From an uncultured Bacilli bacterium (GTDB lineage: Bacteria > Bacillota_I > Bacilli_A > RF39 > UBA660), in NCBI GenBank assembly GCA_910584165.1, contig CAJTZU010000002.1:9595-73594 (forward strand): a stretch of 64,000 nt of DNA. The letters run 5' to 3'. Below, in pieces: positions 32,279 to 46,202 of this stretch. The stretch's first letter is position 1; each line of letters opens with the position of its first letter. Made by a program: the position numbers and the translations under genes. The notes under the pieces were generated by a model that worked only from the letters and a program-made list of their open reading frames with translations, had not been told where the DNA came from and did not search any database.

Positions 32279-33571
32279 TTAATAAGTCTTTCCAGGTCCT
32301 CTCCAAATATAAGATACAGAACTTCCAGAATTAGATAATAAATTTCTTTTTTCAAAGCCTTCGAAAAGTTCATCTTCACAATTCCACAAATCTTCCTCTG
32401 TTAAAGAAAGTTTCTCTAATACTAAAGCTCTATCCTCCTTAGACAAATCAGATGATAAAACAGCAATTGCTTGGTATAAATGATATTTTTTTAAAACCTC
32501 CAATACCCTAGCGTGTTTTTTTGCAATATAAGCTTTATGCTCCTCATCTATATCTTGTCTCATCAATTCTTCATATCCTAACTCTTGATATTTGTCATGA
32601 AGTGCATTTCTAACATCCCTACTAGCATAATCTTCTCCAGATAGGAAAATACCTGCTATAATAGCATCTTCTACACAATATCCTTTTCTAATCTTGTCAG
32701 AAATATATCGTCCTGGTAATTTTTCCTTAATATAAAAATGAGATAATAATATATTTCCAAGAGAAAAAGTATAAGAAGTAAAATCACGTTGCCCTTCTTT
32801 TATATAAATTTCAACCGCTTCTTCTGGACTATATCCCTTTCTAATAGAATAAAATATAGATTCATAATTATACTGATTCTCTAAGCAATACTGCGCTAAG
32901 GTAGTATCTCCCATCATAATCGTTTCATTTTTAATTCTTGGTTCACTATTAATATAATGCTCTACAGCTTCCTCTGGTGTAACACCTGTTCTTTTTAGAT
33001 AACTAAAAATAGCACTGTAATTATATTGATTTTCTAAACAATAACGAAATAAAGTAATATTACCTATCATTAAAACTTTTCGTTGATAGGAAGATACTAG
33101 TTTTTCTATTTCTTTCTCCTGATACTCTTTATCTGGATTTAAATGAGTGGATAAAAAAGTCCTAGGAACTCCTGTTAAAAGAGAAATTTTATAAATACTA
33201 TAAAGCCCTTTTCTATAGGGGTATTTCTTAGAAATATTTTTTTTGATAGTCTCTACAGCATCTTTAACAGACATACCACTTTTTAATCTACGATAAATAG
33301 GTTCTTCAGAAATGCCCTCCATAGAAGCAATTTCTGCTACTGTATACATACCTTCTTGATAAGGATATTTAATAGAAACTCTATTATTAGTTTTCGGTCT
33401 AGTCTTAAAAACAATTCCAGATTTCTTCTTACCTTCTTCAATTGCATCATAAAGACTAAATCCCTTATTTAAATATTTATAAAGAGTGGATGGTGCTAAT
33501 TCAACAATACCTGCAATTGTCTTTACTGATAATAATTTTCCTTCATATTCATATAATTTTCCTGTATACAT
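32279..33571 (-). CDS. hypothetical protein composed of ~6 tandem ~38-aa helix-turn-helix-like modules
   Basis: Repeated Y-x-Y-x-G-hY(S/T)hxEIAxxxGhSxxTLxxYL..G.S.EEAVE modules, e.g. TLFRYCLENQYNYSAIFSYLKRTGVTPEEAVEHYI vs TLAQYCLENQYNYESIFYSIRKGYSPEEAVEIYI. Confidence 0.5.
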   Translation of the reverse strand: MYTGKLYEYEGKLLSVKTIAGIVELAPSTLYKYLNKGFSLYDAIEEGKKKSGIVFKTRPKTNNRVSIKYPYQEGMYTVAEIASMEGISEEPIYRRLKSGMSVKDAVETIKKNISKKYPYRKGLYSIYKISLLTGVPRTFLSTHLNPDKEYQEKEIEKLVSSYQRKVLMIGNITLFRYCLENQYNYSAIFSYLKRTGVTPEEAVEHYINSEPRIKNETIMMGDTTLAQYCLENQYNYESIFYSIRKGYSPEEAVEIYIKEGQRDFTSYTFSLGNILLSHFYIKEKLPGRYISDKIRKGYCVEDAIIAGIFLSGEDYASRDVRNALHDKYQELGYEELMRQDIDEEHKAYIAKKHARVLEVLKKYHLYQAIAVLSSDLSKEDRALVLEKLSLTEEDLWNCEDELFEGFEKRNLLSNSGSSVSYIWRGPGKTY

Positions 33572-33579
33572 AATAATCC

Positions 33580-33816
33580 CTACTTATTGGTATTCTGATA
33601 ATAGTTTCTCTCCGAAATTTGAATAGATATATTTTCTAATTCCTCTATTTCTTCCTCTTCTAATATTCTATCAATATAATATAAGATTTCAGTTAATTGA
33701 AAACAATTTTGATAAGGAATTTCATATCTATCTAAAATAGATACTTCCTCATCCGATAACCAAATACCATGATTTCTTTCTTTTAAAAATTTTTTTTCAA
33801 AATCTATTTCTTCCAT
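33580..33816 (-). CDS. hypothetical small acidic protein
   Basis: ORF only. Confidence 0.35.
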   Translation of the reverse strand: MEEIDFEKKFLKERNHGIWLSDEEVSILDRYEIPYQNCFQLTEILYYIDRILEEEEIEELENISIQISERNYYQNTNK

Positions 33817-33819
33817 ATT

Positions 33820-34689
33820 TTACTCCGTATAAAGTGTAATGATTCCCTCTCTATGAAGTTCTAAAATTTTAGTCCATACATCATCTTCTACATAACGATT
33901 TTTTTTAGGATGAACTAAATAACGAATAAAGAATTCCATGTGACTATCCACTACCTTCATATAAACAATTGGATCTAATTTATTATAATAAATTCTATAA
34001 TCTAAACTAATCTCTTCCATTTCACTCTGCATTTTTTTAGGAATTCTTTTAACTACTTCATTTTGATTGATGATTTCTAATAACTTCTTCTTTGTTTCTC
34101 CCACATCAGCATCTAAAGTAGTTTTAACAATGATTTCTGTCCAAATATATTTAAAATTCTTATCCTCATTTTTAATAGGTGTTGTAAGAGCAAATGAATT
34201 TGGTACATTAATAGCAATACCAGTGCTTTGAGAACCATTTTCATTATTATTTACTTCTAATAATTCAAAATTAAGAGTACTAATATTAATAACATCACCC
34301 TTAATGCCATTTACTTCAATTCTATCTTCAATAACAAACGGTTTTTTTATTTTAATATAAATACCTGCAAAAAAGTTAAAAATAAGTTCTCTTAAAGCTA
34401 GTGTTAAAGCAGCTGATATAAAACTGATAATTGTAATAATATTATCCAAAAATTTATCCCATAAAATAAAGATAATAATAACATTCATACTTGTTAAAAC
34501 AATATTACAAATCTGATAATAATGATAAGCTTTCTTCTGTTCAAAAATCATTAAAATATTTTTTAAACAAACCTTAACAATTTTAAATATTAAAAAGGAT
34601 AACAATGTTAAAAGAATCGATAAAAAGATTTCATTATCAATACCTGTACTTTCTTCTACCCAAAGACTAAAATCTTCTAAGTATTTCAT
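33820..34689 (-). CDS. mechanosensitive ion channel, MscS family
   Basis: 3 TM helices followed by FAGIYIKIKKPFVIEDRIEVNGIKGDVINIS beta-domain signature. Confidence 0.7.
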   Translation of the reverse strand: MKYLEDFSLWVEESTGIDNEIFLSILLTLLSFLIFKIVKVCLKNILMIFEQKKAYHYYQICNIVLTSMNVIIIFILWDKFLDNIITIISFISAALTLALRELIFNFFAGIYIKIKKPFVIEDRIEVNGIKGDVINISTLNFELLEVNNNENGSQSTGIAINVPNSFALTTPIKNEDKNFKYIWTEIIVKTTLDADVGETKKKLLEIINQNEVVKRIPKKMQSEMEEISLDYRIYYNKLDPIVYMKVVDSHMEFFIRYLVHPKKNRYVEDDVWTKILELHREGIITLYTE

Positions 34690-34770
34690 AAATCACCTCT
34701 AAACACAATTATGACATCATAACATATTTTATCTACTAAGTCAAAAAATTATGCACATATATGTACATAA

Positions 34771-35811
34771 CTATTTTTGTTTCTCTGACTTTTTTGTTAA
34801 ATAATCTTCTAAAGTGTATTGTAACGTTTCAATACGCATATCTACCTGTTTTTCATTTGCCAGAATACCATTTTCATCTAAGCAATTCTCTACTGCTCTA
34901 GCAGCGTTACAAAGATTAGATTCATCGCTACTAAGTAAATCTGTAGCGCCTGTTACCTCATGAATAATTAGCCATCTTCCTTCAATACACTCTAATACAT
35001 ATTCTGAAGCAGTATACGTACTTTTTGTTCGGTTAACATAATCTGTTTTTACTTTCAGATAAATTTTTTGAATTAAATCTGTAGTACGCTTAGAATATTG
35101 AGTATTATTAAATATAGTACCTGTATAAACAGTAGTTTCCCTATTTTTTCCAATCTCTGCTTTTTCATCAATACAAGTTAAATAAGCGGTTCTATACCCA
35201 TAACTAGTTTCTTTTGCCTCTTCATAACATTTTAATACCTCTAATATTTCTTGTGGGGTTGGAGTCTTTTTTAAATTAATAAAACGAATTAACGTCATAA
35301 GAGCTTCTTCATCTACATCAAGCTGATAAATAGTCCTACTAGTATAGTAATAAAAAGATATTCCATCTTCTACTTGCATACCAATTTCTTTTGGCCAATT
35401 AGGATCTGTTATTTCAATTTCTTCATCAATATATTTTCTTTCTTTACTAATAACTTCATACGTTAGTAATTCTCCGTCTAAAACAACAGGAATATCTAAA
35501 GATTGCTCAATAAATTTGCGTAATTCCTCCTTCAATAAAATAATACGAGCAGAAATCTGCTTTTCTACACTAGTAGTATTACGATTCATCTCTTCTAATT
35601 CTTGACAATCCCGTAATAATATTTCTAATTCCTGTGGCACTGTAGTTTCTACATAAGTATCTATTGGAACTTCTACTATATTTGCCTCACTTGAAGGCAA
35701 TAATATTGTAGTTGTTAATAATAAAACTGATAATGATTTTACCAATGTGATACGACTAGGAATCTTTCCTCTTCTATTTATCCTCATATTACCCCACCTT
35801 ATTATCTTCAT
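34771..35811 (-). CDS. hypothetical secreted protein
   Basis: N-terminal signal/anchor; no motifs. Confidence 0.4.
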   Translation of the reverse strand: MKIIRWGNMRINRRGKIPSRITLVKSLSVLLLTTTILLPSSEANIVEVPIDTYVETTVPQELEILLRDCQELEEMNRNTTSVEKQISARIILLKEELRKFIEQSLDIPVVLDGELLTYEVISKERKYIDEEIEITDPNWPKEIGMQVEDGISFYYYTSRTIYQLDVDEEALMTLIRFINLKKTPTPQEILEVLKCYEEAKETSYGYRTAYLTCIDEKAEIGKNRETTVYTGTIFNNTQYSKRTTDLIQKIYLKVKTDYVNRTKSTYTASEYVLECIEGRWLIIHEVTGATDLLSSDESNLCNAARAVENCLDENGILANEKQVDMRIETLQYTLEDYLTKKSEKQK

Positions 35812-35841
35812 TATACCATAAGATTTTTAAAAAAAAGACAA

Positions 35842-37089
35842 TTATTCATTGTCTTTACATTTTTCTAATTCATAAATAGCTGATAATACTCCTAATTTTC
35901 CATATTCATAAGTAAGTCCACCTTGTTGATAAGCAATGTAAGGCTCTCGAATTGGTCCATCACAAGATAGTTCAATAGAAGAACCTTGTGTGAATGTTCC
36001 TGCTGCCATAATCACTTTATCCGTATAACCTGGCATATCCCATGGTTCTGGAACTGCAAAAGCATCTATTGGAGAGCCTTTTTGAATACCTTGGCAATAT
36101 TTAATTAACTTATTTGGGTCATGAAAACATATATTTTGAACAATATCAGCTCTTGTTTCATTCCATTTAGGTTCTACTTCATAACCTAATTTTTCTAATA
36201 CTTTACTAGTCAAAACCGCTGTTTTTAAGCTACTTGCTACTACACTAGGAGATAAAAATAATCCCTGTGCAATAGACTTATTAATTCCTAAACTTGGGCC
36301 TACTTCTCTTCCTTCTCCAGGTAAAGTTAATCTTTCTGAAGCTAATTCTACTAACTCTTTACGTCCTGCAATATAAGCACCATTAGGAGCAATGCCTCCT
36401 CCTAAATTTTTAATTAAAGAACCCACAATAACATCAGCTCCTACCATTGTAGGCTCTTTTTCAGATACAAACTCACAATAGCAGTTATCTATCATAATTA
36501 TTACATTTTTATCAATTGTTCTAATATCTTTTATAATTTTCTCTACCTTGTCAATTGTTATACTTTTACGACTAGAGTATCCTTTAGAGCGTTGAATTTC
36601 TATCAACTTTACAGTATTATTGTTTAAATATTGTAAAATTGCATCTGTATCAAAATCATTTTCTTTCAACTCTATTTGGTCATATTTTATTCCAAAAGAT
36701 TTTAAAGAACTAGCATTCTCTTCTATCCCTATTACTTCATGTAATGTATCATATGGTGTACCTGTAATACTAAGCATTAAATCGCCTGGACGAAGATAGG
36801 CAAATAATGCAACAGTTAAGGCATGACTACCTGAAATAAACTGACTTCTAACTAATGCATCTTCTGCTCCTAGTACTTGCGCAAATACTTTTTCAATTGT
36901 ATCTCTTCCGATATCATCATATCCATATCCTGTAGTGGAACCAAAATGAGCATCTGAAAAATTATATTTTTGAAAAGCATCTATTACCCTTTTAGAATTA
37001 GCAAATTCTAATTCTTCTATCTTTTTAAATTCATCTTGTACTTCTTTTTCACTTTCTTCTACTAATTCTTTTAATTCCTCATAACTCAT
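35842..37089 (-). CDS. PLP-dependent Cys/Met-metabolism family enzyme (YnbB / aluminium-resistance protein family)
   Basis: Overall YnbB-like sequence (N-terminus MSYEELKELVEESEKEV..., GSTTGYGYDD, lysine-containing region). Confidence 0.6.
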   Translation of the reverse strand: MSYEELKELVEESEKEVQDEFKKIEELEFANSKRVIDAFQKYNFSDAHFGSTTGYGYDDIGRDTIEKVFAQVLGAEDALVRSQFISGSHALTVALFAYLRPGDLMLSITGTPYDTLHEVIGIEENASSLKSFGIKYDQIELKENDFDTDAILQYLNNNTVKLIEIQRSKGYSSRKSITIDKVEKIIKDIRTIDKNVIIMIDNCYCEFVSEKEPTMVGADVIVGSLIKNLGGGIAPNGAYIAGRKELVELASERLTLPGEGREVGPSLGINKSIAQGLFLSPSVVASSLKTAVLTSKVLEKLGYEVEPKWNETRADIVQNICFHDPNKLIKYCQGIQKGSPIDAFAVPEPWDMPGYTDKVIMAAGTFTQGSSIELSCDGPIREPYIAYQQGGLTYEYGKLGVLSAIYELEKCKDNE

Positions 37090-37811
37090 AAAATTCCTCC
37101 ATCTACGCGAATTACTTCATTATTGATATATTTTGCTTGAGGGCTTGCTAAAAAGACAACAACATTAGCAATTTCTTCTGGCTCAGCAAATCGACGAACT
37201 AGTATTTTTTCACATTCTTCCTTAATATACTCTTCATCTAATTCTTTAATCATTTCTGTATTAACCCATCCTGGCGCTACTGCATTTACTCTAACATTAG
37301 GAGAATATTCAACTGCTAAATTATGAGTTAAAGAAATTAATCCAGCCTTAGAAGCATCATAATCTAAGCTATAGGGATAATAAGTATCTATTCCATTTGT
37401 AGACGTAATATTAATAATAGAACTTCCCTCATTCATATACTTTTTACATTCTCTTGCACATAAAAATGCACCAATTAAATTTACTTTCAGTGTTCTTTCA
37501 AAATCTATTACTGTTTTATCTTCCACCAATGTATCAATAGCAATTCCTGCATTATTTACTAAAACGTCTATTTTTCCATAAGTATCTACTACTTTTTTTA
37601 CCATTTCTCTTACTTCATCTTCATTCGATATATCTGCCTTAACTATCATAGAAGAATTTCCCATTTCTTCTATTTTATTTTTTACCTCTAATGCTCTTTC
37701 TTCACTACTACGATAATTAATAATGACAGTATCTTTTTCTTTAGCAAAAGCAAATGTTATGGCAGAGCCAATCCCACGGCTTGCGCCTGTTATTAATACA
37801 ACTCTATTCAT
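37086..37811 (-). CDS. SDR-family oxidoreductase (3-oxoacyl-ACP reductase FabG-like)
   Basis: TGASRGIG Rossmann motif, NNAG, YxxxK; 4-bp overlap with downstream PLP enzyme gene. Confidence 0.75.
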   Translation of the reverse strand: MNRVVLITGASRGIGSAITFAFAKEKDTVIINYRSSEERALEVKNKIEEMGNSSMIVKADISNEDEVREMVKKVVDTYGKIDVLVNNAGIAIDTLVEDKTVIDFERTLKVNLIGAFLCARECKKYMNEGSSIINITSTNGIDTYYPYSLDYDASKAGLISLTHNLAVEYSPNVRVNAVAPGWVNTEMIKELDEEYIKEECEKILVRRFAEPEEIANVVVFLASPQAKYINNEVIRVDGGIL

Positions 37812-37927
37812 AAAATCCTCCTAAATATTTCTTATTCATTATAACAATTTTCATACACAAAGTCTATCACAACTAGTATTTACTTACTAGTTATGGTATA
37901 GTTAGCATGTAGAAAGTAGTTGATGAT

Positions 37928-38221
37928 ATGTTTTCATTTTTTAAAAAGCCAGAAAATATCGTACTTCCTTCTGAATTTCAGGATTTTCCTGCCTATACTG
38001 GAATTATAAAAAAAGGACCAATTTTAATTGATAAAACAGAGTACTCTAGAATCTCCTATTATGTAAAAGGAGGAATAGAAGAATATAAACAAGTTTTAAA
38101 TAATTATGGATATAGTCAAAAGTCAGAAGTAAAATTTCAAAATCAATTTAATGATAATTATATTATTATTGAAAAAGAAGGTTTCGTACAATATAAAATT
38201 GCTTATCATAAAAAAAAGTAG
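37928..38221 (+). CDS. hypothetical protein
   Basis: ORF; TGnTATAGT extended -10 about 25 nt upstream. Confidence 0.35.
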   Translation: MFSFFKKPENIVLPSEFQDFPAYTGIIKKGPILIDKTEYSRISYYVKGGIEEYKQVLNNYGYSQKSEVKFQNQFNDNYIIIEKEGFVQYKIAYHKKK

Positions 38222-38226
38222 ATATT

Positions 38227-38934
38227 CTACTTTTTTCTTTTACTACTAATAATTGGATATTTGAAAGAATACTGCCATCCAGACTCTTTGGTTACCTCAA
38301 AACCATCTTTCTCTTGCAGTTTTGCTAAAGCATAAATCTCATCTACATAACTACCATAACTAATAAGAGCACTAGGAATTGCTAGATTACTAGAATGTAC
38401 ACAACCGCACATTGCTAAAAAGAATTCCTTATGCTCTTTTGTTGCTTTTCTAATAATCATACGAGTTGCTTCACATGGCATAATTCCTACCACTAAATCA
38501 TAAGACTCTACTGACATTTCTTCTGTAAAGCATTCTTTATGCAATGCAATATTTCCTAATCTATCCACAATTAAATCTGGATCATAAACAGTAATCGTTC
38601 CTTTACTTCCATTTTCTTGTTGAAATTCATCTACATATTTTGAAAACATTGGAAAAAAACCTCCACCTATTTCTAAAATATGAGAATTCCATCCATATCT
38701 TTCCCCTATCATATTAGCAAATCCTAAGTAACAGTTTTCATCCTCATTTAAAATACCAAATAAAGCATAAATTTGTTTTAATAAATCTGTCGTATCACTA
38801 ATTGGCATTCTCTCTAAAAAATGTTCTTCAATAAATTGAACTGCTAAATCAGGATATTTATCTTGATAAATTTTTAAATAATGAGATAGCATTTTTAAAT
38901 AAACAATTTTATCTATTTCACTTATTCTAGACAT
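38227..38934 (-). CDS. hypothetical Rossmann-fold protein (SAM-methyltransferase-like GxGxG), downstream of RT
   Basis: HILEIGGGFF (motif I-like), TVYDPD (acidic post-I), DLVVGIMPCEA; strong SD AAAGGGGA 7 nt before ATG. Confidence 0.4.
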   Translation of the reverse strand: MSRISEIDKIVYLKMLSHYLKIYQDKYPDLAVQFIEEHFLERMPISDTTDLLKQIYALFGILNEDENCYLGFANMIGERYGWNSHILEIGGGFFPMFSKYVDEFQQENGSKGTITVYDPDLIVDRLGNIALHKECFTEEMSVESYDLVVGIMPCEATRMIIRKATKEHKEFFLAMCGCVHSSNLAIPSALISYGSYVDEIYALAKLQEKDGFEVTKESGWQYSFKYPIISSKRKK

Positions 38935-38969
38935 AAAAAATCCCCTTTTTATGAGTAGTTATTCTAACA

Positions 38970-38997
38970 TAAGAAAAAAGAGTTGTCAAAACTCTTT
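38970..38997 (-). terminator. terminator/attenuator-like hairpin overlapping RT stop codon
   Basis: Minus strand aaagagtt-ttgac-aactcttt followed by UUUUCUUAU; stop codon TGA lies in loop. Confidence 0.4.
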
Positions 38998-40173
38998 AAA
39001 TTTATAATAAGCATTTACAAGGCTTTTATAACCATTTTCTTTTAATAATTGATAAGGAACTTTCCACTGATTACTTTCATGATAATTACCAGTCATAATA
39101 TATCTTAAATTTTTTTGAAAATAATTATCAATCTCGCGTAACCCAGAAACACTATTAATAACAGGAAAATACCAAATACTCCAATTTAATTCTTTCCCTT
39201 TTTTCTCATAAAAAAATTTATAATTGAAAATAGTATTCATAGATTTTAAAGCTTTTTCTAATGGAATATTTTTTCTAATTGCCCATCTTCTAAGTGCTTT
39301 AGCTTTTCTTTTTATTTTAGTCTTCATTTTCTCTTTTGCATGATTTGATAAATCTATGGTTCCTTGAAAGTAAGAAAATCCCAAAAATTCAAGTTTCTCA
39401 TTAGGAGTATAGTATTTTTCTTTAGAAAGATTGATTTCTAAGCTTGCTTCTTTAAAATATTGCTTTATAAAAAAGACTTTCTTTTCTAGCTCTTCTTTTG
39501 TACTAGCAAATAAAATAATATCATCTGCATATCTAGCATAATTACTATCCTTCATTTGAAAATCTAATGGTGATAAATATATATTAGATAAAAAGCAAGA
39601 AATGGGAGTTCCTGCCATTACTCCTTTTTTCTCATATAAGATTTTTCCATCATACAGAACTCTATCATCCAATAATATTTTCTCTAATAACCGATAACTT
39701 TTTTCATCTATTTTTCCATTTAATATTTCTAGTAAAGAATCTATCGGTATACTATTAAAGTAATTTTGAATATCCACCTTATAACCATAACCAGAAAAAG
39801 ACTTTTGAATTGATAAAAATGCTTGTTTTGGTCCTACTTTTCTCCTAAAAGAATAACAATTATCACACAAAAGGAATTCATACTCTGAAAAAAGAAAATG
39901 AATCATCTTTAAAATAATATTCTCTTCTTCTCTAAATTGATAAATAACTCTTTTTTTAGAAGAATGATTTTTATTAATTAACTTTTTTTGAGGAATCGAA
40001 AAAGTATATGCTTCTTCTACTATCTTTTGAGAAATGGGTAAATATCTTTTTTCTTCTATATATTGTTTTAATTTTTGATATTCTCTTTTCTTTAGATTTT
40101 TTTCTTCTAAAAATTGAAGCCATTTATCATGATTTATTAAACCGTCTAACACAGACACTATTTTCACCACCAT
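38986..40173 (-). CDS. reverse transcriptase (RNA-directed DNA polymerase), orphan group-II-intron-like/DGR-like class, no endonuclease domain
   Basis: RT motifs 1-7: KKRVIYQF / CYSFRRKVGPKQAF / DIQNYFNSI / AGTPISCFLSNIYLSPLD / YARYADDIIL / LEINLSKEK / LEFLGFSY; thumb-like C-terminus; 395 aa. Confidence 0.85.
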   Translation of the reverse strand: MVVKIVSVLDGLINHDKWLQFLEEKNLKKREYQKLKQYIEEKRYLPISQKIVEEAYTFSIPQKKLINKNHSSKKRVIYQFREEENIILKMIHFLFSEYEFLLCDNCYSFRRKVGPKQAFLSIQKSFSGYGYKVDIQNYFNSIPIDSLLEILNGKIDEKSYRLLEKILLDDRVLYDGKILYEKKGVMAGTPISCFLSNIYLSPLDFQMKDSNYARYADDIILFASTKEELEKKVFFIKQYFKEASLEINLSKEKYYTPNEKLEFLGFSYFQGTIDLSNHAKEKMKTKIKRKAKALRRWAIRKNIPLEKALKSMNTIFNYKFFYEKKGKELNWSIWYFPVINSVSGLREIDNYFQKNLRYIMTGNYHESNQWKVPYQLLKENGYKSLVNAYYKFKEF

Positions 40174-40298
40174 GGAAGAGAAAAAATTGAATAATCAATA
40201 TATTGATTAATGACTGGATTATATATATCAAAGTCACTTGCAAAACATCATACATGATATACTGAATCCCCTACAAGTGTGTTTCCACATCTCTTCCA
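40174..40298 (-). ncRNA. candidate structured 5-prime leader / ncRNA upstream of RT (terminal 9-nt inverted repeats, GAAA-tetraloop hairpin)
   Basis: Minus-strand transcript predicted to start at UGGAAGAGA (40298-40290) and end at UCUCUUCCA overlapping AUG (40181-40173); internal ugug-GAAA-caca hairpin. Confidence 0.3.
40192..40209. promoter_or_regulatory. 18-bp perfect palindrome TAATCAATATATTGATTA, candidate operator, 18 bp upstream of RT start
   Basis: Exact self-reverse-complement verified by hand. Confidence 0.45.
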
Positions 40299-40303
40299 AA
40301 ATC

Positions 40304-40336
40304 ATTATAGCAGTTCCTTTCTACAAAGTCTATTTC
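40304..40336 (-). promoter_or_regulatory. extended -10 promoter (TGcTATAAT) driving RT leader
   Basis: Minus-strand tagact-17-TGcTATAAT; predicted TSS ~7 nt downstream coincides with 5-prime inverted repeat. Confidence 0.45.
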
Positions 40337-40422
40337 TATAAAATGACATTTTTCTAATCTTTTAGTAGCATATTTTAAAAAAATTCAGTATAATACAACT
40401 ACAAAGAAGGAAGGAAGTATTT

Positions 40423-41565
40423 ATGTCATCGTTTCAAAACAATAAAAAAAGATTTTATGTAACTATTTTTACTATTATCCTATTTTTAGGAAGTATTTCG
40501 ATAGCTATCATTTTAGATAAGCCAAAGAAGAAAGAAAATTATCCAGTTAGAAAACCTAACTCTACTAGTATAAGTAACAATGGAAACTCTGATAAATTTA
40601 CAAATGACAACACAAATACAAATTCTCAAAATAATCAAGATTCTAAAAAGGAGAATTCTAACACAAATAAGTCTAGTAATTCCCAATCATCATCTAGTAA
40701 AGTTACCAATAATATAAAAACTAGTAATTCTAATCAAAGTAAACCTTCAAATACAGCAAGTAATTCCAATACCAATTCTAATAAGCCTACAAATTCTAAC
40801 ACAACAAGCAACTCCAATACCAATTCTAATACAAGCTCTAATAAGCCAGTAGAGCCACCTAAAAATGAAGATAAAAATAATAGTAAAAGAAAATCTATTG
40901 AAAAGGCATATGGGGTTAAAATATTATATGGGAATGAAATAGGTTCCTACAAACCTAAAGGAATAACTCCTACAAAATTAACTAACGATAATGATATTGA
41001 AAATTATCTAAATCGTCTCAATACAGAATTAGCAAAATATCCTAAAAACTTCTTTCAAGATTTCAATAAAAAAGGAATGCCACTTACCATTTATTTAATT
41101 AAAAGTGCGAATGGTGCTTTTTCTGGGTTTACTGATTATCAATTTATGAATGATATTAAACTAACTTTAACAACAGATTTTGAATTTGAATATACTTTTC
41201 ATCATGAAATAATGCATTATATCGATTGCTATCTAAATATTGTTATGTACCCCAAAACTCCTTATGAAGAATTTGAAGCATTAAATCCAAAAGAATTTCA
41301 ATATGGAAAAGCATCTAGTTCTCAAATATATAATATGGCAAATAATCCTAGAGGGGCTTATTTTATTTCCAAATATGGAGCTAGTAATGTTGCAGAAGAT
41401 AGAGCTGAAATTTTTAAATATATGACAGCTAGAGCATATGCTCCTATTGGATGTTTTGAAAAAGAGGAAATTATTCGAAAAAAAGCAATTATTATTAGTA
41501 AACAAATAAAAACTTATTTTCCATCAGTAACAACAGATGCTCATTGGGATAGATTTATAAAATAA
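40423..41565 (+). CDS. membrane-anchored/secreted protein with Asn/Ser/Thr-rich low-complexity linker and C-terminal HExxH zinc-metallopeptidase-like domain
   Basis: N-terminal TM (FYVTIFTIILFLGSISIAIIL), ~100 aa NSNT repeats, C-terminal FHHEIMHYID; promoter TATAAT at ~40389 and RBS AAGGAAGGAAG. Confidence 0.5.
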   Translation: MSSFQNNKKRFYVTIFTIILFLGSISIAIILDKPKKKENYPVRKPNSTSISNNGNSDKFTNDNTNTNSQNNQDSKKENSNTNKSSNSQSSSSKVTNNIKTSNSNQSKPSNTASNSNTNSNKPTNSNTTSNSNTNSNTSSNKPVEPPKNEDKNNSKRKSIEKAYGVKILYGNEIGSYKPKGITPTKLTNDNDIENYLNRLNTELAKYPKNFFQDFNKKGMPLTIYLIKSANGAFSGFTDYQFMNDIKLTLTTDFEFEYTFHHEIMHYIDCYLNIVMYPKTPYEEFEALNPKEFQYGKASSSQIYNMANNPRGAYFISKYGASNVAEDRAEIFKYMTARAYAPIGCFEKEEIIRKKAIIISKQIKTYFPSVTTDAHWDRFIK

Positions 41566-41605
41566 ATAGGACACATAATTGTGTCCTATTTTATTAGTTA
41601 TTACT

Positions 41606-42211
41606 TTATTCTAAATCTTGATTCCAACAAGTATCTAGTTCTTCTTCATTAGCAAGTTTAGAAACAGCAGCACTTAAACAACTATACATTGCTCTTGTAC
41701 TTTTACCTGTTGCTTGATAATTTGAAATATGTTTTTTAGAAATACCAATTGACATTCCTTCTTGATAAGCATCTATATTAGCGCCTAAATAGATAAATTT
41801 CCAATCTTTTTTAGATGTAATTAATTTTTTGACTTTATCACGAGTAAATTCGCGACTAGAATTTTCCATACCATCTGTGGTAATAACAAATATTACTTTA
41901 CTGTTTTTTGCTCTTTTACTAATTTTTTGAATAGTAAAACCAATCGCATCCATTAAAGAAGTTGTACTGCCAACATAATAATCTTTTTCTGTTAAAGATT
42001 TTACATCTGAAATATCTTTTCCATCATGTAAAAATTCTAACGAAGAATCAAATAATACTGTCGTTATTTTTACTTCTCCTTTTAATCTTTTCTGTTTTTC
42101 CAAGAAACTATTATACCCACCTATCGTATCACTTTCTAAGCCTGCCATGGAACCACTCTTGTCTAATAAAAAGACTATTTCTGTTTTTTTCATAATATCC
42201 CTCCGTTTCAT
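41606..42211 (-). CDS. von Willebrand factor type A (vWA) domain protein
   Basis: MIDAS motif LLDKSGSM (DxSxS), ...TTDGMEN (T...DG), 201 aa. Confidence 0.7.
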   Translation of the reverse strand: MKRRDIMKKTEIVFLLDKSGSMAGLESDTIGGYNSFLEKQKRLKGEVKITTVLFDSSLEFLHDGKDISDVKSLTEKDYYVGSTTSLMDAIGFTIQKISKRAKNSKVIFVITTDGMENSSREFTRDKVKKLITSKKDWKFIYLGANIDAYQEGMSIGISKKHISNYQATGKSTRAMYSCLSAAVSKLANEEELDTCWNQDLE

Positions 42212-42241
42212 GCTATAATAATACTAAATCCAAACAATGAT

Positions 42242-42757
42242 TTGGTCGCCTTGGAGGGGACATTTATGAATACTTTAGAAAAATTAAAAATTTATCTTGA
42301 TACAAATTTAGAAGAAGTTTCTTTTCAATCCGCACAATGCTTTGAATGTGATATGGCATTTCCTAAAAGAATGTGTAAGGTAGGTTCTATCAATGACTAC
42401 GTAGAAAATGAAATAAATGATAATACATTCACTTCTCTACTCCTTTCTTATATTGATAAAAAAGGATTAAAAGATTCTGATATCTATCATAAAGCAAATA
42501 TAGATAGACGTCTATTTTCTAAAATTAGAAGCAATGAATTTTATCACCCCAAAAAAGAAACTGTAATTGCCCTAGGACTTTCCTTAGAACTATCTATTGA
42601 AGAATTTGAAAAATTACTGGAAAGTGCATCTTATTCACTACCTAAAAATAATGTTTCAGACTTAATTATTCGATTTTGTATCATGGAAAAAATATATAAT
42701 GTTATAGAAGTAAATTCTCTACTCTCTGAATATCAATGCCCATTACTTTTCCAATAA
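42242..42757 (+). CDS. XRE-family helix-turn-helix domain protein
   Basis: LKDSDIYHKANIDRRLFSKIRSNEFYHPKKETVIALGLSLELSIEEFEKLL matches XRE HTH pattern. Confidence 0.45.
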   Translation: MVALEGTFMNTLEKLKIYLDTNLEEVSFQSAQCFECDMAFPKRMCKVGSINDYVENEINDNTFTSLLLSYIDKKGLKDSDIYHKANIDRRLFSKIRSNEFYHPKKETVIALGLSLELSIEEFEKLLESASYSLPKNNVSDLIIRFCIMEKIYNVIEVNSLLSEYQCPLLFQ

Positions 42758-42782
42758 AAAAAGACGCTTAAGCGTCTTTTGG
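42756..42782. terminator. bidirectional terminator shared by convergent genes
   Basis: aagacgc-ttaa-gcgtctt perfect hairpin flanked by A-run and T-run; stop codon of minus-strand gene sits in loop. Confidence 0.6.
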
Positions 42783-43433
42783 TCTCATAATAGGAAATTT
42801 TTGATACATAAATTCATCATCATACACTTTATCATAAAATTCCCCTGAAACAGTAAATGGCTTTTGACCATTATTACGCCATGCCATTCTAGCAAATGCA
42901 CTATACGTAATAAAAATATCTAATAAAAGGAATACTAAGACAATCTTATAAATTGGTTGTCCTATTTTATATGGAATTTTTTCTATCCAATTAGATACTT
43001 TAGGATAAATTAATTTCATTAATATGGTTCCAAGTATCCCCCAACCTAGCATAAAGGGGACACTAGTTCTTCCTTGTATATTTAAAAAATGATCTGAGTA
43101 ATCCCAAAATTTTACTTCAAAAAAAGTATCTGCTATAAAACCAGTTATATATTCTGTAATGCCACCTATTAAACAGGCATAAAGAAATGTTTTTAAAATA
43201 CTTCTAGCATCATTCTTTTTTCCTAATAAAAGGACAAATGCCAATACTCCTACTCCATAAATAGGACTAAATGGTCCATAAATTAAACCTTGTCTAGTAG
43301 TAATTTCTCCATACTTAATAAACCATAATACCTCTTCATAATAAGTACCAATTAGACAACCTAATACAAAAAAGATAAATAGTTTAGTAAAACAGTACCC
43401 TTTCGCAAACACTTTTTCTTCCATACAACACAC
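42768..43433 (-). CDS. integral membrane protein, hypothetical (putative ABC-transporter-associated permease-like)
   Basis: 6 TM helices. Confidence 0.4.
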   Translation of the reverse strand: MCCMEEKVFAKGYCFTKLFIFFVLGCLIGTYYEEVLWFIKYGEITTRQGLIYGPFSPIYGVGVLAFVLLLGKKNDARSILKTFLYACLIGGITEYITGFIADTFFEVKFWDYSDHFLNIQGRTSVPFMLGWGILGTILMKLIYPKVSNWIEKIPYKIGQPIYKIVLVFLLLDIFITYSAFARMAWRNNGQKPFTVSGEFYDKVYDDEFMYQKFPIMRPKDA

Positions 43434-43477
43434 ATCCTATTTTTAGTATAACAAAAAAAGGATATAAAGTCATATCC

Positions 43478-43795
43478 TTACATCATCTCATTTACTTTAG
43501 GACTATACTTCCCACTTGTTTCATCTAGTTTTTGCTGTTCTGCTCTTTCTAAGCAATACCAACCTCTTTGAAAAGCATAATCAAAAAATAATCTTTGTAA
43601 ATTAGATGTTTCATCAAAAATAGTTTTAATAACGTCATAAAGTGGTCTATTACTTGCTTCATTTAAAGCATAAGAGTAATTATTTACCATATTTTTTAAA
43701 CTTTCCAATAAATCATTTAAATAATTTTCATCATTCATATCTGTTGTTTGTGGTACTTCTACTTTTGGGTTCGTAACTTTATTTTGATTATTCAT
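43478..43795 (-). CDS. spore coat protein, CotF-like (Coat_F domain)
   Basis: LNDLLESLKNMVNNYSYALNEASN...LYDV..IFDET pattern. Confidence 0.55.
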   Translation of the reverse strand: MNNQNKVTNPKVEVPQTTDMNDENYLNDLLESLKNMVNNYSYALNEASNRPLYDVIKTIFDETSNLQRLFFDYAFQRGWYCLERAEQQKLDETSGKYSPKVNEMM

Positions 43796-44012
43796 TAGAA
43801 CCTCCTATACTAAGTGCTTGCAAAAGCTTTTCATAGTGTTCCTTACAAGTATTCGCTAAAGAAAGAAATGCATCCCTTAACGCCTCATCTGTTACTTCTG
43901 TACTGAAATGATATGCTTTTTTAGACATTGTATAATTCCAATTCATCATATCTTCTAAATACGCTAAATCTTTGGTTGAAACCATTGCTGGTACTGTATT
44001 CATATAATCCAT
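43788..44012 (-). CDS. spore coat protein F-like, small partner protein
   Basis: 8-bp overlap with CotF-like gene; helical ~74 aa. Confidence 0.4.
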   Translation of the reverse strand: MDYMNTVPAMVSTKDLAYLEDMMNWNYTMSKKAYHFSTEVTDEALRDAFLSLANTCKEHYEKLLQALSIGGSNE

Positions 44013-44074
44013 CCTTTCTATCCATATAATGTACTAGGAAAGTGAAATTTATACAAAAAAAAGATAGATTTTTT

Positions 44075-44746
44075 TCATCTAACTTTTTCTTCAAAAAGAT
44101 GATTTTCTCTAAAAATATATCCTAAATCTTCAATCGATTTTGGCATATTAAATCTTCCATTTCCAACAGGATAAAAAATAGGATATACTTTATATTCTTT
44201 ATCTTTAATTTTTAAATATTTATACTTTTTACGCCACTCTGTTACGGATACTTTTTCATCTAATAGAATACTACTTACTTGATTACCAAAAGTAACAATA
44301 ATATCAGGGTTTATATATCTTATTTCTTCTTTTAATAGATGAAGATATTCTAGATAGACACTATCTGGTAACGGTCTAGCATCTATTTGCGTACATTTTC
44401 CTAAATTGGTAATAAAGTATCCTTTAGAAGCTACTTCATCATATACCTTTTGAGAAAACTCCGGTGTCCAATCTTTTGGTTTTATATTTTGTATCTCTTG
44501 AAAAATTTCTTCATCTAATAATCCTATTTGATAAAATAATTGCCATACTATTTTTGTGCCTATCCATGGAGCACGAATTCCTGGCCAAGAAGAATCTGAC
44601 GCTACATTTCTACCCGTTGGATTCATAAAAACAAAACATACTTTTGGATTAGAAAAACAGCCTCCGTGATAAATAGCATGTAATTCTTTTGCACCATATT
44701 GCTTTTGTAATTTGTCATACTTTTTATACAATTTTTCTAACTCCAT
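44075..44746 (-). CDS. uracil-DNA glycosylase superfamily protein (putative)
   Basis: VCFVFMNPTGRN N-terminal pocket motif and C-terminal YPVGNGRFN resemble UDG-like fold families. Confidence 0.35.
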   Translation of the reverse strand: MELEKLYKKYDKLQKQYGAKELHAIYHGGCFSNPKVCFVFMNPTGRNVASDSSWPGIRAPWIGTKIVWQLFYQIGLLDEEIFQEIQNIKPKDWTPEFSQKVYDEVASKGYFITNLGKCTQIDARPLPDSVYLEYLHLLKEEIRYINPDIIVTFGNQVSSILLDEKVSVTEWRKKYKYLKIKDKEYKVYPIFYPVGNGRFNMPKSIEDLGYIFRENHLFEEKVR

Positions 44747-44785
44747 AGTATCACCTAATTCATTATAACATAAAAAGAAAGACTG

Positions 44786-45538
44786 TTACATCTTTCTTTG
44801 TTTTGATACTGCTAAACGTAATAATAAGCATTTTTCTGGGCCTATCTCATTACCATCTAATTTTGCTTCTGCTTCCTCTAATTCATATCCATGGACAGTA
44901 TTAAGAACAATTGGTTTTATCACTTGATTATATTCTTCTTCTGCAATACAAGTACCATTAGCAAAATCAAATACTTTTCCATTTTGTCTTACATAACTAT
45001 GATATTGTTTTCTTCCAAATTGATGAGGAATTAAACCAGTTACTGCTTCATATTCTGGATTTTCTTTTATAAATCTTTCGGAAGCATCGTGACAAAAGCC
45101 ATAATAAAATCTTCTAGCTGCATAATCCTGTATTGTTAAATCTTGTAAATAAAGTACTAATGGAGTGGTCACTAAAGTTCCTACTTTAGTATCTAATACA
45201 TAATTATTTTGAATTCTAGTAATCGCATTCATAGAATAGAAAAATTTCCATTCTGAACACAATTCTGGTGGTATACCACATCGTATTCTTGCATCCATAT
45301 TAGCTAAAATATAAGGTATTTCAAATTCATAACTATAATTCAAATCTTTTAATAGTGGCCATAATAAGTTACTATATCCACTCTGTATTAAAGAATAAAG
45401 CTTTGTAATAGAATCCATATTAGATGGAAAAGTAACATATCCATAGCGCTTTTGAAATTCATTTAATACAGTGTCTGCAATTTCTAATACCTCTTTATGT
45501 TGACCTTTTGTTTCATTGTAAACTTGATAAGCATTCAT
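44786..45538 (-). CDS. hypothetical protein
   Basis: ORF only. Confidence 0.4.
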   Translation of the reverse strand: MNAYQVYNETKGQHKEVLEIADTVLNEFQKRYGYVTFPSNMDSITKLYSLIQSGYSNLLWPLLKDLNYSYEFEIPYILANMDARIRCGIPPELCSEWKFFYSMNAITRIQNNYVLDTKVGTLVTTPLVLYLQDLTIQDYAARRFYYGFCHDASERFIKENPEYEAVTGLIPHQFGRKQYHSYVRQNGKVFDFANGTCIAEEEYNQVIKPIVLNTVHGYELEEAEAKLDGNEIGPEKCLLLRLAVSKQRKM

Positions 45539-45583
45539 AATAATCCCCCTTTTTACGGTGAATTATTCTAACACAAATTTAAT

Positions 45584-46090
45584 TTACTCGCAAATTTTTC
45601 CAAAATGATTATGGTAAATTTGTTCAAAACAATGAATATGAACTTCCTCATCTTCTATAATTCGTTCTAATATTTTTTTTATATAAGGATCATTTATTTC
45701 TTGAATGTGTTTTTGATATGTTTTAATAGCTTTCATTTCTCTAGCAATATTATCTAATAAAATAGTAGATAAATTAGTAGCATAATTTACATTTTTACTA
45801 GTCCATGGAATTACACATTCAATATTACTATCTACTGTATAAAAAGATGGTAAATTACCTAATTGATAAATCAATTTTCCTAAAATTTCTAAATGATGCA
45901 TCTCTACTTTAGAAATACCCTCTAATATCTCTTTTTCCTCTTCTACAACAAGACTTTGATAAAAATAAGTATGGATTGCAGTATCTTCTCCATTTTCTCC
46001 TGCATAATCTTCTAATAAAATCTTAGCGTATTCTATATTTTCTCTTTCTACTTCAATTTTAGGATAGGGTTTACAAGAACAATACTCCAT
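45584..46090 (-). CDS. ferritin-like/rubrerythrin-like protein (CotJC/Mn-catalase-like)
   Basis: Paired E..H motifs (KVEMHHLEIL, EDEEVHIHCFE). Confidence 0.45.
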   Translation of the reverse strand: MEYCSCKPYPKIEVERENIEYAKILLEDYAGENGEDTAIHTYFYQSLVVEEEKEILEGISKVEMHHLEILGKLIYQLGNLPSFYTVDSNIECVIPWTSKNVNYATNLSTILLDNIAREMKAIKTYQKHIQEINDPYIKKILERIIEDEEVHIHCFEQIYHNHFGKICE

Positions 46091-46147
46091 ATCATCACCT
46101 ATTCCAATATATGCCTTAAATTCTTAAAAATTCTTCTCATTTAGAAA

Positions 46148-46176
46148 TTGATATATACTCTCTTTTATAGTAGAAT
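46148..46176 (+). promoter_or_regulatory. promoter TTGATA-17-TAGAAT upstream of phosphoketolase
   Basis: Consensus-like hexamers; RBS AAAGGGG before ATG. Confidence 0.45.
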
Positions 46177-46202
46177 AGTATATAGAATAAAGGGGCGATG
46201 TT

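Follow-up and report, generated by a model that had tools for sequence, protein, structure and literature searches.

Class 2 of the UG/Abi reverse transcriptases (RTs) is characterised by YxDD RT motifs without any additional known domain, and includes the UG26 group (Mestre et al. 2022, NAR, PMC9226505; the group also appears in Toro 2019). In the 2022 study UG26 had 35 members of about 400 amino acids, consisting of an RT with a C-terminal extension and no other domain; neither an ncRNA nor a function was reported, and the defence score was described as 'inconclusive'. A COG2852/Vsr-like neighbour was reported in only 9 of the 35, and is therefore accessory to the group, not defining. DRT9 (UG28) combines an RT with an ncRNA, and copies a conserved U-tract into protein-primed poly-dA. 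DRT10 (UG17) combines an RT, an ncRNA and a SLATT protein, and makes telomerase-like tandem-repeat cDNA (bioRxiv 10.1101/2025.10.16.682844 and 10.64898/2026.06.29.735271). In both DRT9 and DRT10 the protein itself primes synthesis, from a Ser or Tyr at its C-terminus. Each Class 2 UG RT studied has revealed a new route for making DNA from a small RNA, and DRT2 builds a gene de novo. To our knowledge, UG26 is among the UG groups that have been characterised by nobody. RT-5 is one of a series of RNA motifs, RT-1 to RT-19, found near RT genes and speculated to belong to retrons or DGRs (Weinberg et al. 2017, NAR, PMC5737381); no paper tying RT-5 to UG26 was found in the literature.

The window, ie the whole 64,000-nt stretch of DNA analysed here, carries a three-part accessory UG26 module, which probably works as an ncRNA-templated system. 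We give this reading a probability of roughly 0.6, with the role of the module as its least certain step. What had been taken for an orphan RT becomes a defined system of a cis-encoded 104-nt RT-5 RNA, a 390-residue RT directly downstream and a convergent 97-residue partner. The link of RT-5 to UG26, the covariation-backed pseudoknot and the partner genes are new from the present analysis.

The reverse transcriptase

The RT gene lies at 38986..40173 on the minus strand and encodes 395 amino acids, or 390 if the GTG at 40158 is the start. The sequence-only reading had described it as a free-standing RT with the usual motifs, YADD included, and the translation agrees: the motifs YKVDIQNYFNSI, GVMAGTPISCFLSNIYL, YARYADDIIL and LEFLGFSY are all found, and Pfam returns RVT_1 and nothing else (residues 66-267, E=2.2e-23). 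Profile HMM classification, which that reading had proposed as a check, gave PADLOC RT_UG26 as the best match, at 434.7 bits (E=6.5e-131) and with residues 7-394 aligned to profile positions 2-397 of 398. The next-best groups, UG17, UG27 and UG4, are all near 1e-31, with UG17 second at 107 bits (2.1e-31). The proposed place in the UG/DRT world was thus the right one, and the RT can be classified, its whole length belonging to a catalogued group. Judged by its profile and motif matches, the ORF is a genuine free-standing RT and a complete UG26 protein, of the same length and layout as those published. The family is far larger than the published one, with at least 533 loci encoding relatives among species-representative genomes.

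The layout of the protein is motifs 1-7, with the catalytic YADD, followed by a C-terminal extension of about 125 amino acids; with no additional known domain, this is the Class 2 trait. In an alignment of 36 family sequences D134, G188, Y215, D217, D218, K251 and G265 are invariant, the two YADD aspartates (D217/D218) being encoded at 39525-39520. A GY(K/R)SLVxxYY element near the C-terminus is also invariant in this alignment. Its two tyrosines, Y389 and Y390, come after the conserved GY(K/R)SLV and lie 5-6 residues from the C-terminus; in DRT10 there is a comparable conserved C-terminal helix which ends in hydroxyl residues.

Translation probably begins with the GTG at 40158 (MSVLDGL...) and not with the annotated ATG, because relatives start there, a Shine-Dalgarno-like GGTGGTG run precedes it, and the gene is called at 390 amino acids in two public assemblies. 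The cysteine in motif 4, which the sequence-only reading had marked as atypical, is present (C193), but it is confined to the closest relatives. Other family members have S, A, P, T or G at this position, giving a UG26 motif-4 pattern of AG(T/V)PxSxFL(A/S)N. From the alignment, the cysteine is a trait of the closest relatives and carries no family-wide meaning.

The fingers and palm resemble those of group II intron RTs. The best NCBIfam match is a group II RT/maturase model (E=6.6e-31), GsI-IIC RT is second among solved structures (E=3e-28), and motif 7 contains LGF, as might be expected of what is left of a group II intron, degraded or reduced to its ORF, or of an RT of the group II-like (G2L) kind. 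We give this origin almost no credence. The score with this model, TIGR04416, is 107.7 against a cutoff of 300, and Pfam detected neither a maturase (GIIM) domain nor an HNH endonuclease, while the UG26 profile scores 434.7 bits. No intron family was found among 4227 Rfam models, either at E<=1 in 37500-41000 or at the gathering threshold in the whole window; a flanking domain V/VI, the ribozyme part that would have made the gene an intron, was thus sought and not found, and the RNA which does lie upstream is a different conserved one (see below). The earlier judgement that this is not a group II intron holds. The DRT9-like structure 9ioa also matches the window RT (E=9e-22), DRT9 sharing with it a Class 2 RT and an upstream ncRNA, although the DRT9 RT is about 100 amino acids longer. 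A DGR was rejected, as no pair of template and variable repeats was found near the RT: direct repeats in 33000-47000 exceed neither 50 nt nor 83% identity, and are only short matches at chance level.

The RT-5 RNA

The space between the RT and the divergent gene, put at about 250 bp by the sequence-only reading, is 249 nt (40174-40422) and contains RT-5 (Rfam RF03026) at 40179..40282 on the minus strand. The match covers model positions 1-104 of 104 and, at 57.3 bits (E=9e-10), is above the gathering score, which is 45.7. Our own covariance model, R1, gives the same copy 85 bits. With R1, 78 of 81 UG26 loci, spread over Bacillota and Bacteroidota, were found to have one same-strand copy of RT-5 upstream of the RT, and Rfam's own model confirmed it in 10 of the 11 loci tested. 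An Rfam motif of unknown function is in this way tied to a specific RT group, and an RNA which did not appear in the published account of UG26 is nearly universal in the family.

In RT-5 a pseudoknot (CACUUGUA / UUGCAAGUG) is formed between the 5' single strand and the apical loop of P1. P1 itself, a helix in three parts, comes after the 5' strand, and is separated by a GU, which is invariant, from the P2 hairpin (UAAUCAA-UAUA-UUGAUUA). P2 is followed by UUCAA and then by a pyrimidine tract, UUUUUUCUCUUCC, the 3' end of which is 1 nt before the annotated ATG of the RT. Over the 78 copies, pairing is 97.6% in the pseudoknot, 95.7% in P1b and 95.1% in P1c, values reached by none of 500 shuffles, and the pseudoknot had been left out of the model that built the alignment. 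Compensatory changes occur at six of its seven pairs. In a covariation count both partners have changed at 26 of 29 pairs, with a score of 0.531 vs 0.221 in shuffles, and the P2 stem has a mean of 7.1 bp vs 4.3 bp in shuffles. When the window copy, which is AT-rich, is folded by itself (MFE -20.6 kcal/mol, z=-0.29) it is no better than shuffles, so the structure is one drawn from comparison and covariation. On that comparative basis the pseudoknot is backed by covariation. RT-5 is thus a structured cis ncRNA, as found in the Class 2 UG systems DRT2, DRT9 and DRT10. The DRT10 RNA, by comparison, is a 137-nt figure-eight with six stem-loops, whereas RT-5 has 104 nt and a pseudoknot.

A promoter-like site was found by consensus scan at 40304..40332 on the minus strand (TAGACT-17 nt-TATAAT, 10/12 matches, with an extended -10, ie TG before the -10). 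It would start a transcript approximately 15-20 nt upstream of RT-5, but is weak evidence, because such sites are no more frequent in the region than in shuffles. No terminator-like site was seen between RT-5 and the RT gene in the site scan. By analogy with DRT2, DRT9 and DRT10, RT-5 would probably be transcribed with the RT, as the leader of its transcript.

A leader may be no more than cis-regulatory, for example a site for autorepression by the RT, with the ribosome-binding site hidden by the tract. In that case the RT would work on another template or template-free, as Class 1 UG RTs do. The position of RT-5, ending 1 nt upstream of the annotated ATG and 24 nt before the likely GTG at 40158, fits this view, as does the lack of a visible terminator. 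Furthermore, the CCUCU of the tract could pair with a following GGAGG in several Firmicute loci, and a template repeat in the RT-5 tails is not demonstrable. The tract is, however, best conserved in Bacteroidota sequences which have no GGAGG before the start codon, and a pseudoknot and two helices kept across phyla exceed the needs of a translational operator. In all characterised Class 2 UG RTs, moreover, the cis ncRNA is the template. We therefore regard a purely regulatory RT-5 as rather unlikely. Since the pyrimidine tail abuts the ribosome-binding site, part of RT-5 could nevertheless serve translation control and not templating.

It is much less probable still that RT-5 is an msr/msd-type RNA from which branched msDNA is primed at a 2'-OH. 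Such a retron-like arrangement was the general suggestion for RT-1 to RT-19 (Weinberg et al. 2017, PMC5737381), and would agree with the position of RT-5 upstream of the RT and with its invariant unpaired G residues (the AG bulge and the GU junction). In retrons, on the other hand, the 5' end is paired with the 3' end in the a1/a2 stems, whereas that of RT-5 is paired with an internal loop in the pseudoknot. RT-5, the only Rfam match, also has no long msd-like stem. The RT itself lacks the VTG box, as the sequence-only reading had pointed out; it scores 63.6 with retron_St85_RT, for which the cutoff is 235, and the PADLOC retron RT models are far below UG26.

Partner genes and chromosomal setting

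The description of the RT as an orphan did not survive, as the spacer contains RT-5 and a conserved partner gene lies 0.76 kb downstream. This gene (37928..38221, plus strand) is convergent to the RT and encodes a 97-residue protein with a short hydrophobic and basic N-terminus (MFSFFKK) followed by an alpha/beta domain of about 85 amino acids. Members of its family, c5, have this convergent orientation in the whole of one RT clade, and the pairing was confirmed in four of four further look-ups. No recognisable effector domain was found in the 97-residue protein and the family is absent from PADLOC; we consider the protein a candidate for the role of effector or of sensor. A second family, c2, which is COG2852-like, lies upstream of the RT in 48 of the 81 loci, all of them from the other RT clade. 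No c2/RTasCOG2852 homologue occurs near the window RT, whose clade has the 97-residue protein instead of the neighbour published for UG26. From the distribution of the two families, c5 and c2 are alternative partners which track the RT phylogeny. Homology between them was rejected (hhalign probability 1.2%), the likeness being limited to an amphipathic N-terminal start of the MGLF type. Profile searches of the PDB gave no significant match for either family, including that of c2 to the LINE-1 ORF1p RRM (E=0.1).

The comparison with DRT10 is closest at the level of organisation, ie a Class 2 UG RT, an upstream cis ncRNA and a third small protein. The RT groups differ (107 bits with the UG17 profile, 435 with UG26), and the partner in DRT10 is a SLATT protein, whereas no SLATT match was found in the proteins flanking the window RT. 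Among 54 c5 members there is a single weak match to RTasSLATT (E=0.0015).

The gene between the RT and its partner, P235 (38227..38934, minus strand), encodes 235 amino acids with a predicted class I SAM-methyltransferase-like fold (AF2 pLDDT 93.9), the model matching methyltransferases in Foldseek at E ~1e-5 and TM ~0.45. As a partner of the RT it was rejected: homologues of 33-42% identity belong to rimM-trmD-rplS and infB-rbfA-truB operons, a ribosome and translation setting in which there is no RT, and the gene is kept at this site in both syntenic genomes which lack the RT. A promoter-like site, TTGACA-17-TAGAAT, was found for it by consensus scan at 38989-38961, and the sequence is also upstream of the gene in L178, one of those two genomes. 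We judge P235 to be outside the RT module; in the window's clade this unrelated gene came to stand between the RT and its partner, which it merely separates.

The sequence-only reading had placed the RT in a small non-core islet and had suggested looking for the islet in related genomes. RT-5, the RT and the 97-residue gene are jointly present in six syntenic genomes (that of the window, L001-L004 and L179) and jointly absent in two, L178 and L180, while P235, fabG and ynbB persist in all eight. Neither was the module found in the 8-kb flanks of any of the 25 more distant loci which retain fabG-ynbB. The module is accessory, as supposed, and the syntenic genomes without it are natural presence/absence controls.

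This setting bears on whether the module is defensive. It may instead have a host-beneficial role, ie RNA-templated DNA synthesis for a cellular function in gut anaerobes, and would then be the first of the Class 2 UG RTs to serve anything but defence. The module occupies the same chromosomal site in the six related genomes, and within the clade the RT has diverged to a similar extent (59-78% identity) as the neighbouring fabG (57-81%). Base composition and GC content of the locus show no anomaly and no sign of recent transfer. Carriage by phages or plasmids was rejected, as no UG26-like RT was found in PLSDB, INPHARED or IMG/VR (the last having only distant RTs, of about 30% identity). The 135 flanking genes are mostly housekeeping, with a few strong defence matches (AbiO, Nhi, TIR), and the published defence score is inconclusive. 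Against a non-defensive role, presence varies among close relatives, L178 lacking the module although its ynbB is 94% identical; one UG26 copy is inside a MobL/ParB/SNF2 mobile element, and some loci do abut AbiO, Nhi or TIR genes. The literature, moreover, states that all UG RTs characterised so far are antiviral. We consider a non-defensive role unlikely, though worth keeping in view, and the module a good candidate, by analogy, for RNA-templated DNA synthesis in bacterial conflict with viruses. Whether defence or other conflict, the role would be the least certain part of our explanation.

A model for templated synthesis

By analogy with DRT2, DRT9 and DRT10, the RT would bind RT-5 and copy, repeatedly, a short single-stranded stretch bounded by stems. 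Two stretches are candidates for the template: the GU that links P1 to P2 and, 3' of P2, the UUCAA with the pyrimidine tail. This conserved single-stranded, U/C-rich tract could act like the U-tract of DRT9, although the DRT9 template is a poly-U loop whereas the RT-5 tract is a mixed-pyrimidine 3' tail by the start codon. The cDNA made in this way would be repetitive or resemble a homopolymer, and its priming may be from the C-terminal Y389/Y390. The 97-residue protein would then link the activity of the RT to an effect on the cell, such as arrested growth upon phage infection.

UG26 occurs commonly among the Bacteroidota and Bacillota of the gut and the rumen. More tentatively, and with the odds against it, UG26 and RT-5 may together form a compact telomerase-like RNP, in which a pseudoknot RNA presents a stem-bounded template that is copied repeatedly from a C-terminal tyrosine primer, with the output read by one of two small partner proteins, unrelated and previously undescribed, c5 in the window and c2 elsewhere. 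The Class 2 UG systems would thereby gain a fourth type of mechanism, one widespread in gut and rumen anaerobes and not in Enterobacteria. Were the mechanism like that of DRT10, the small size of the system would be of interest for RT evolution and for tool building.

A template of the A-B-A' type, as in DRT10 and telomerase, was looked for 3' of P2 and is unsupported, repeats being no commoner than in dinucleotide shuffles: the mean longest direct repeat was 3.63 nt vs 3.86 in the shuffles, and a direct repeat of at least 5 nt occurred in 14% of tails vs 27%. As templates, neither the GU junction nor the internal loop of P1b/P1c showed anything decisive on inspection by eye. Single tails can have striking repeats, TCGATTCTC occurring twice in that of locus L005 and GATTTT twice in that of L080.

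Identity of the reverse transcriptase

The reading frame at 38986..40173 on the reverse strand is real and encodes 395 amino acids, and every motif quoted in the sequence-only reading was found in its translation. RVT_1 is the sole Pfam domain (residues 66-267, E = 2.2e-23). Across a 36-member family alignment the catalytic and structural residues D134, G188, Y215, D217, D218, K251 and G265 are invariant, as is a C-terminal GY(K/R)SLVxxYY. The translation start is likely to be the GTG at 40158, judging by the relatives' proteins, which begin MS(V/I)LD at the matching point, by a GGTGGTG run immediately 5' of it, and by two public assemblies of this organism, in which the protein has 390 aa. 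A spacer of 249 nt separates the gene from its divergent upstream neighbour, in agreement with the earlier estimate of about 250 bp.

The protein matched the PADLOC profile RT_UG26 over its full length (434.7 bits, E = 6.5e-131), the runner-up named groups, UG17, UG27 and UG4, giving about 1e-31 to 1e-29. The gene had been described as a free-standing reverse transcriptase (RT) that was not a mobile intron, and both points hold; it is not, however, unclassified. Tested on the features that define them, the group II intron, retron and diversity-generating retroelement (DGR) readings all failed. Of the NCBIfam models, that for group II RT/maturase gave 107.7 (cutoff 300) and that for retrons 63.6 (cutoff 235), and those for Drt2, Drt3a and Drt5 were far under their cutoffs. 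Of the DGR, retron-like or defence-type (DRT/UG/Abi) associations originally offered, the UG type is the one that holds. The cysteine in motif 4, to which significance had been attached, is confined to the nearest relatives, other members having S, A, P, T or G, and it is therefore without meaning at the level of the family.

UG26, a Class 2 UG/Abi group, was described on the basis of 35 members, nine of which adjoin a COG2852/Vsr-like protein; no ncRNA was reported for it and its defence prediction was called inconclusive (Mestre et al. 2022, PMC9226505). No later publication characterising the group was found in a literature search. The family is much bigger than published, with relatives encoded at 533 loci or more when one genome per species was scanned by pattern. 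The best 80 of these at least 533 loci are nearly all from MAGs of Bacteroidota and Bacillota of the gut or rumen, with one from Methanomethylophilus. The RT in that Candidatus Methanomethylophilus MAG (locus L077, 6001-7305, 39% identity) had no detectable RT-5 RNA (described below) and neither of the partner families; it may have been acquired from gut bacteria, or the bin may be contaminated.

A structured RNA upstream of the gene

Visual comparison of 80 loci revealed a conserved pattern in the 110 nt 5' of the RT gene, and an Rfam scan matched the full model of the RT-5 RNA (RF03026) at 40179-40282 on the reverse strand (57.3 bits, gathering score 45.7), the only Rfam match across the entire 64-kb window. 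RT-5 belongs to a set of 19 'RT motifs' described from the vicinity of RT genes, with no specific function proposed (Weinberg et al. 2017, PMC5737381). Our own covariance model, made from 39 copies, found exactly one copy, upstream and on the RT strand, in 78 of 81 sources, and Rfam's model confirmed 10 of the 11 loci tested.

Base pairs were counted over the 78 copies. Helices P1b and P1c were 95.7% and 95.1% paired, respectively, and a pseudoknot that joins the 5' single strand (consensus GCGCCUGC, window CACUUGUA) to the apical loop (consensus UUGCAGGC, window UUGCAAGUG) was 97.6% paired, with compensatory changes at six of its seven pairs. Since the pseudoknot was absent from the model that produced the alignment, its pairing is an independent test. 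The observed pairing values were approached by none of 500 shuffles and by no slid register. On the 3' side of an invariant GU lies a second hairpin, P2, variable in sequence and length, whose mean uninterrupted stem is 7.1 bp (4.3 in shuffles); it is followed by UUCAA(A) and a pyrimidine tract extending to the ribosome-binding region. On its own, the RNA of the window did not outdo shuffled sequences in folding (z = -0.29), and the case for structure therefore comes from comparison.

Some 20 nt 5' of RT-5 there is a promoter-like site whose -10 is extended, and no terminator was recognised between RT-5 and the RT gene. Both observations are weak and at the level of consensus, and they suggest that RT-5 is produced as a leader on the RT transcript. 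That it acts mainly as a translational leader is a live alternative to the template-like role considered below. The promoter-like sites 5' of RT-5 (40302-40333, reverse strand) and 5' of fabG (37836-37867, reverse strand) have a common 32-nt stretch, ATAGACTTTGT...TGnTATAATGA, with 75% identity. The leader of the methyltransferase-like gene that follows the RT gene (38932-38972) likewise resembles that of a gene ending at 45538 (78% over 41 nt). The resemblances probably reflect promoter and RBS styles usual in this organism.

Partner genes and joint presence in relatives

Clustering of all ORFs of the 81 loci gave two unrelated small-protein families near the RT gene, c2 and c5, which track the RT phylogeny. 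Family c2 (about 170 aa, 48 loci) is encoded 5' of the RT gene in the same orientation, RT-5 occupying the gap. Its weak matches to PADLOC RTasCOG2852 (15 of 22 members, best E = 3.9e-6) indicate that it is probably the published COG2852-type association of UG26. The only PDB matches of the c2 profile (eg L007, 5296-5832) were to the RRM domain of LINE-1 ORF1p, an RNA chaperone from a eukaryotic retroelement; with E values of 0.1-0.3 they are not significant and may be noise. Family c5 occurs at 15 loci of a single RT clade that includes the window, where it is a 97-aa ORF at 37928-38221 on the forward strand. It is convergent to the RT gene, abutting or overlapping its 3' end in nine loci, with inserted genes between in six. 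Four c5 homologues were picked from the results of a database search, and each adjoins an RT of about 400 aa with RT-5; one of the pairs lies within a MobL/ParB/SNF2 element.

Between the RT gene and c5 in the window lies a 235-aa ORF, P235 (38227-38934, reverse strand). In the five closest loci this ORF comes after the RT gene, but its fold, its homologues, its own promoter-like site and its retention without the RT place it outside the RT module. It is confidently modelled as a class I methyltransferase-like Rossmann fold (pLDDT 93.9), homologues with 33-42% identity occur in RT-free rimM-trmD-rplS and infB-rbfA-truB operons, and its strong promoter-like site overlaps the RT stop codon. The occurrence in ribosome-biogenesis operons makes the family, for which there is no Pfam model, a candidate uncharacterised RNA-modification enzyme of Bacilli; its invariant P153-C154, T157 and C176-G177-C178 may form a metal or redox site.

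Syntenic relatives located through P235 homologues served as natural controls. In L179, whose ynbB is 82% identical to that of the window, RT-5, the RT (57%), P235 and a convergent c5 (60%) are all present. L178 and L180 (ynbB 94% and 80%, respectively) keep CoatF, P235, fabG and ynbB, with no RT, RT-5 or c5 even at very permissive thresholds. RT-5, RT and c5 are thus jointly present in six genomes (the window, L001-L004 and L179) and jointly absent from two, even though P235 stands between the RT and c5 genes. No other evidence ties the 97-aa gene so strongly to the RT, which had been called an orphan and has in fact both an RNA and a protein partner. Because of its presence in six and absence from two syntenic genomes the module is accessory, as the earlier term 'non-core islet' implied. 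None of 25 more distant genomes keeping the fabG-ynbB pair (ynbB 50-73% identical) has it within 8 kb.

RT divergence within its own clade is about equal to that of fabG, there is no GC anomaly, and searches of viral contigs, plasmids and phage genomes yielded no relative. The module can travel on mobile elements, since the copy in L092/L093 (RT at 3906-5114 of L092) lies inside a conjugative-element-like region, with ParB and a MobL relaxase on one side and an LPD28/SNF2-helicase on the other. Between the window and L178, ynbB (35842-37089) is 94% identical, the adjacent fabG (37086-37811) just 61% and P235 59%; so sharp a mosaic at a gene boundary suggests recombination in the region.

Possible mechanism and neighbouring genes

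The comparisons establish the anatomy of the module and the linkage of its parts. In DRT2, DRT9 and DRT10 the RT binds a cis-encoded ncRNA and repeatedly copies a short single-stranded template between two stem-loops, and in DRT9 and DRT10 priming is from a C-terminal Tyr or Ser after a conserved helix. UG26 is similarly a Class 2 RT, and its cis RNA combines two domains of stems with single-stranded segments that are conserved (the GU joining P1 to P2, and UUCAA with the pyrimidine tail 3' of P2). A third small protein component and, at the C-terminus of the RT, the invariant GY(K/R)SLVxxYY are further points of fit with this logic. By analogy, UG26 would carry out RNA-templated, protein-primed DNA synthesis. 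Our confidence in this is moderate, because no template could be assigned and the A-B-A' pattern, by which DRT10 templates are defined, was no commoner than in shuffles. Confidence in a defence role is lower. Just a handful of the 135 flanking genes gave strong defence matches (AbiO, Nhi, a TIR protein, RTasRmuC), the remainder being housekeeping. A non-defence function is a live alternative. Both the RT (UG26) and the RNA (Rfam RT-5) fall into catalogued families. No literature description was found of the link between UG26 and RT-5, the pseudoknot, the c5 partner clade or the joint presence and absence. The module is a well-defined experimental lead, of a known kind but functionally uncharacterised.

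A 201-aa VWA-domain protein (41606-42211, reverse strand) is paired with a divergent gene for a 171-aa protein with an HTH-like C-terminal half (42242-42757, forward strand). The pair recurs directly upstream of RT-5 in L002 and directly downstream of the RT in L048, a distant Oscillospiraceae locus, and L010, too, has a VWA homologue close to the RT. The L048 VWA protein is 46% identical to that of the window, higher than the RT itself (42% identical to the family query) would lead one to expect; the recurrence could be chance, or the two could form an occasional accessory pair. The divergent neighbour of the RT gene (40423-41565, forward strand) encodes 380 aa. Its product has a membrane anchor at the N-terminus and a long low-complexity region rich in Asn, Ser and Thr, and its C-terminal domain resembles the LIC13305 lipoprotein family at E = 2e-20, though the 73 bits fall short of the cutoff, 250. 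The low-complexity region is partly encoded by 48-nt tandem repeats at 40726-40821.
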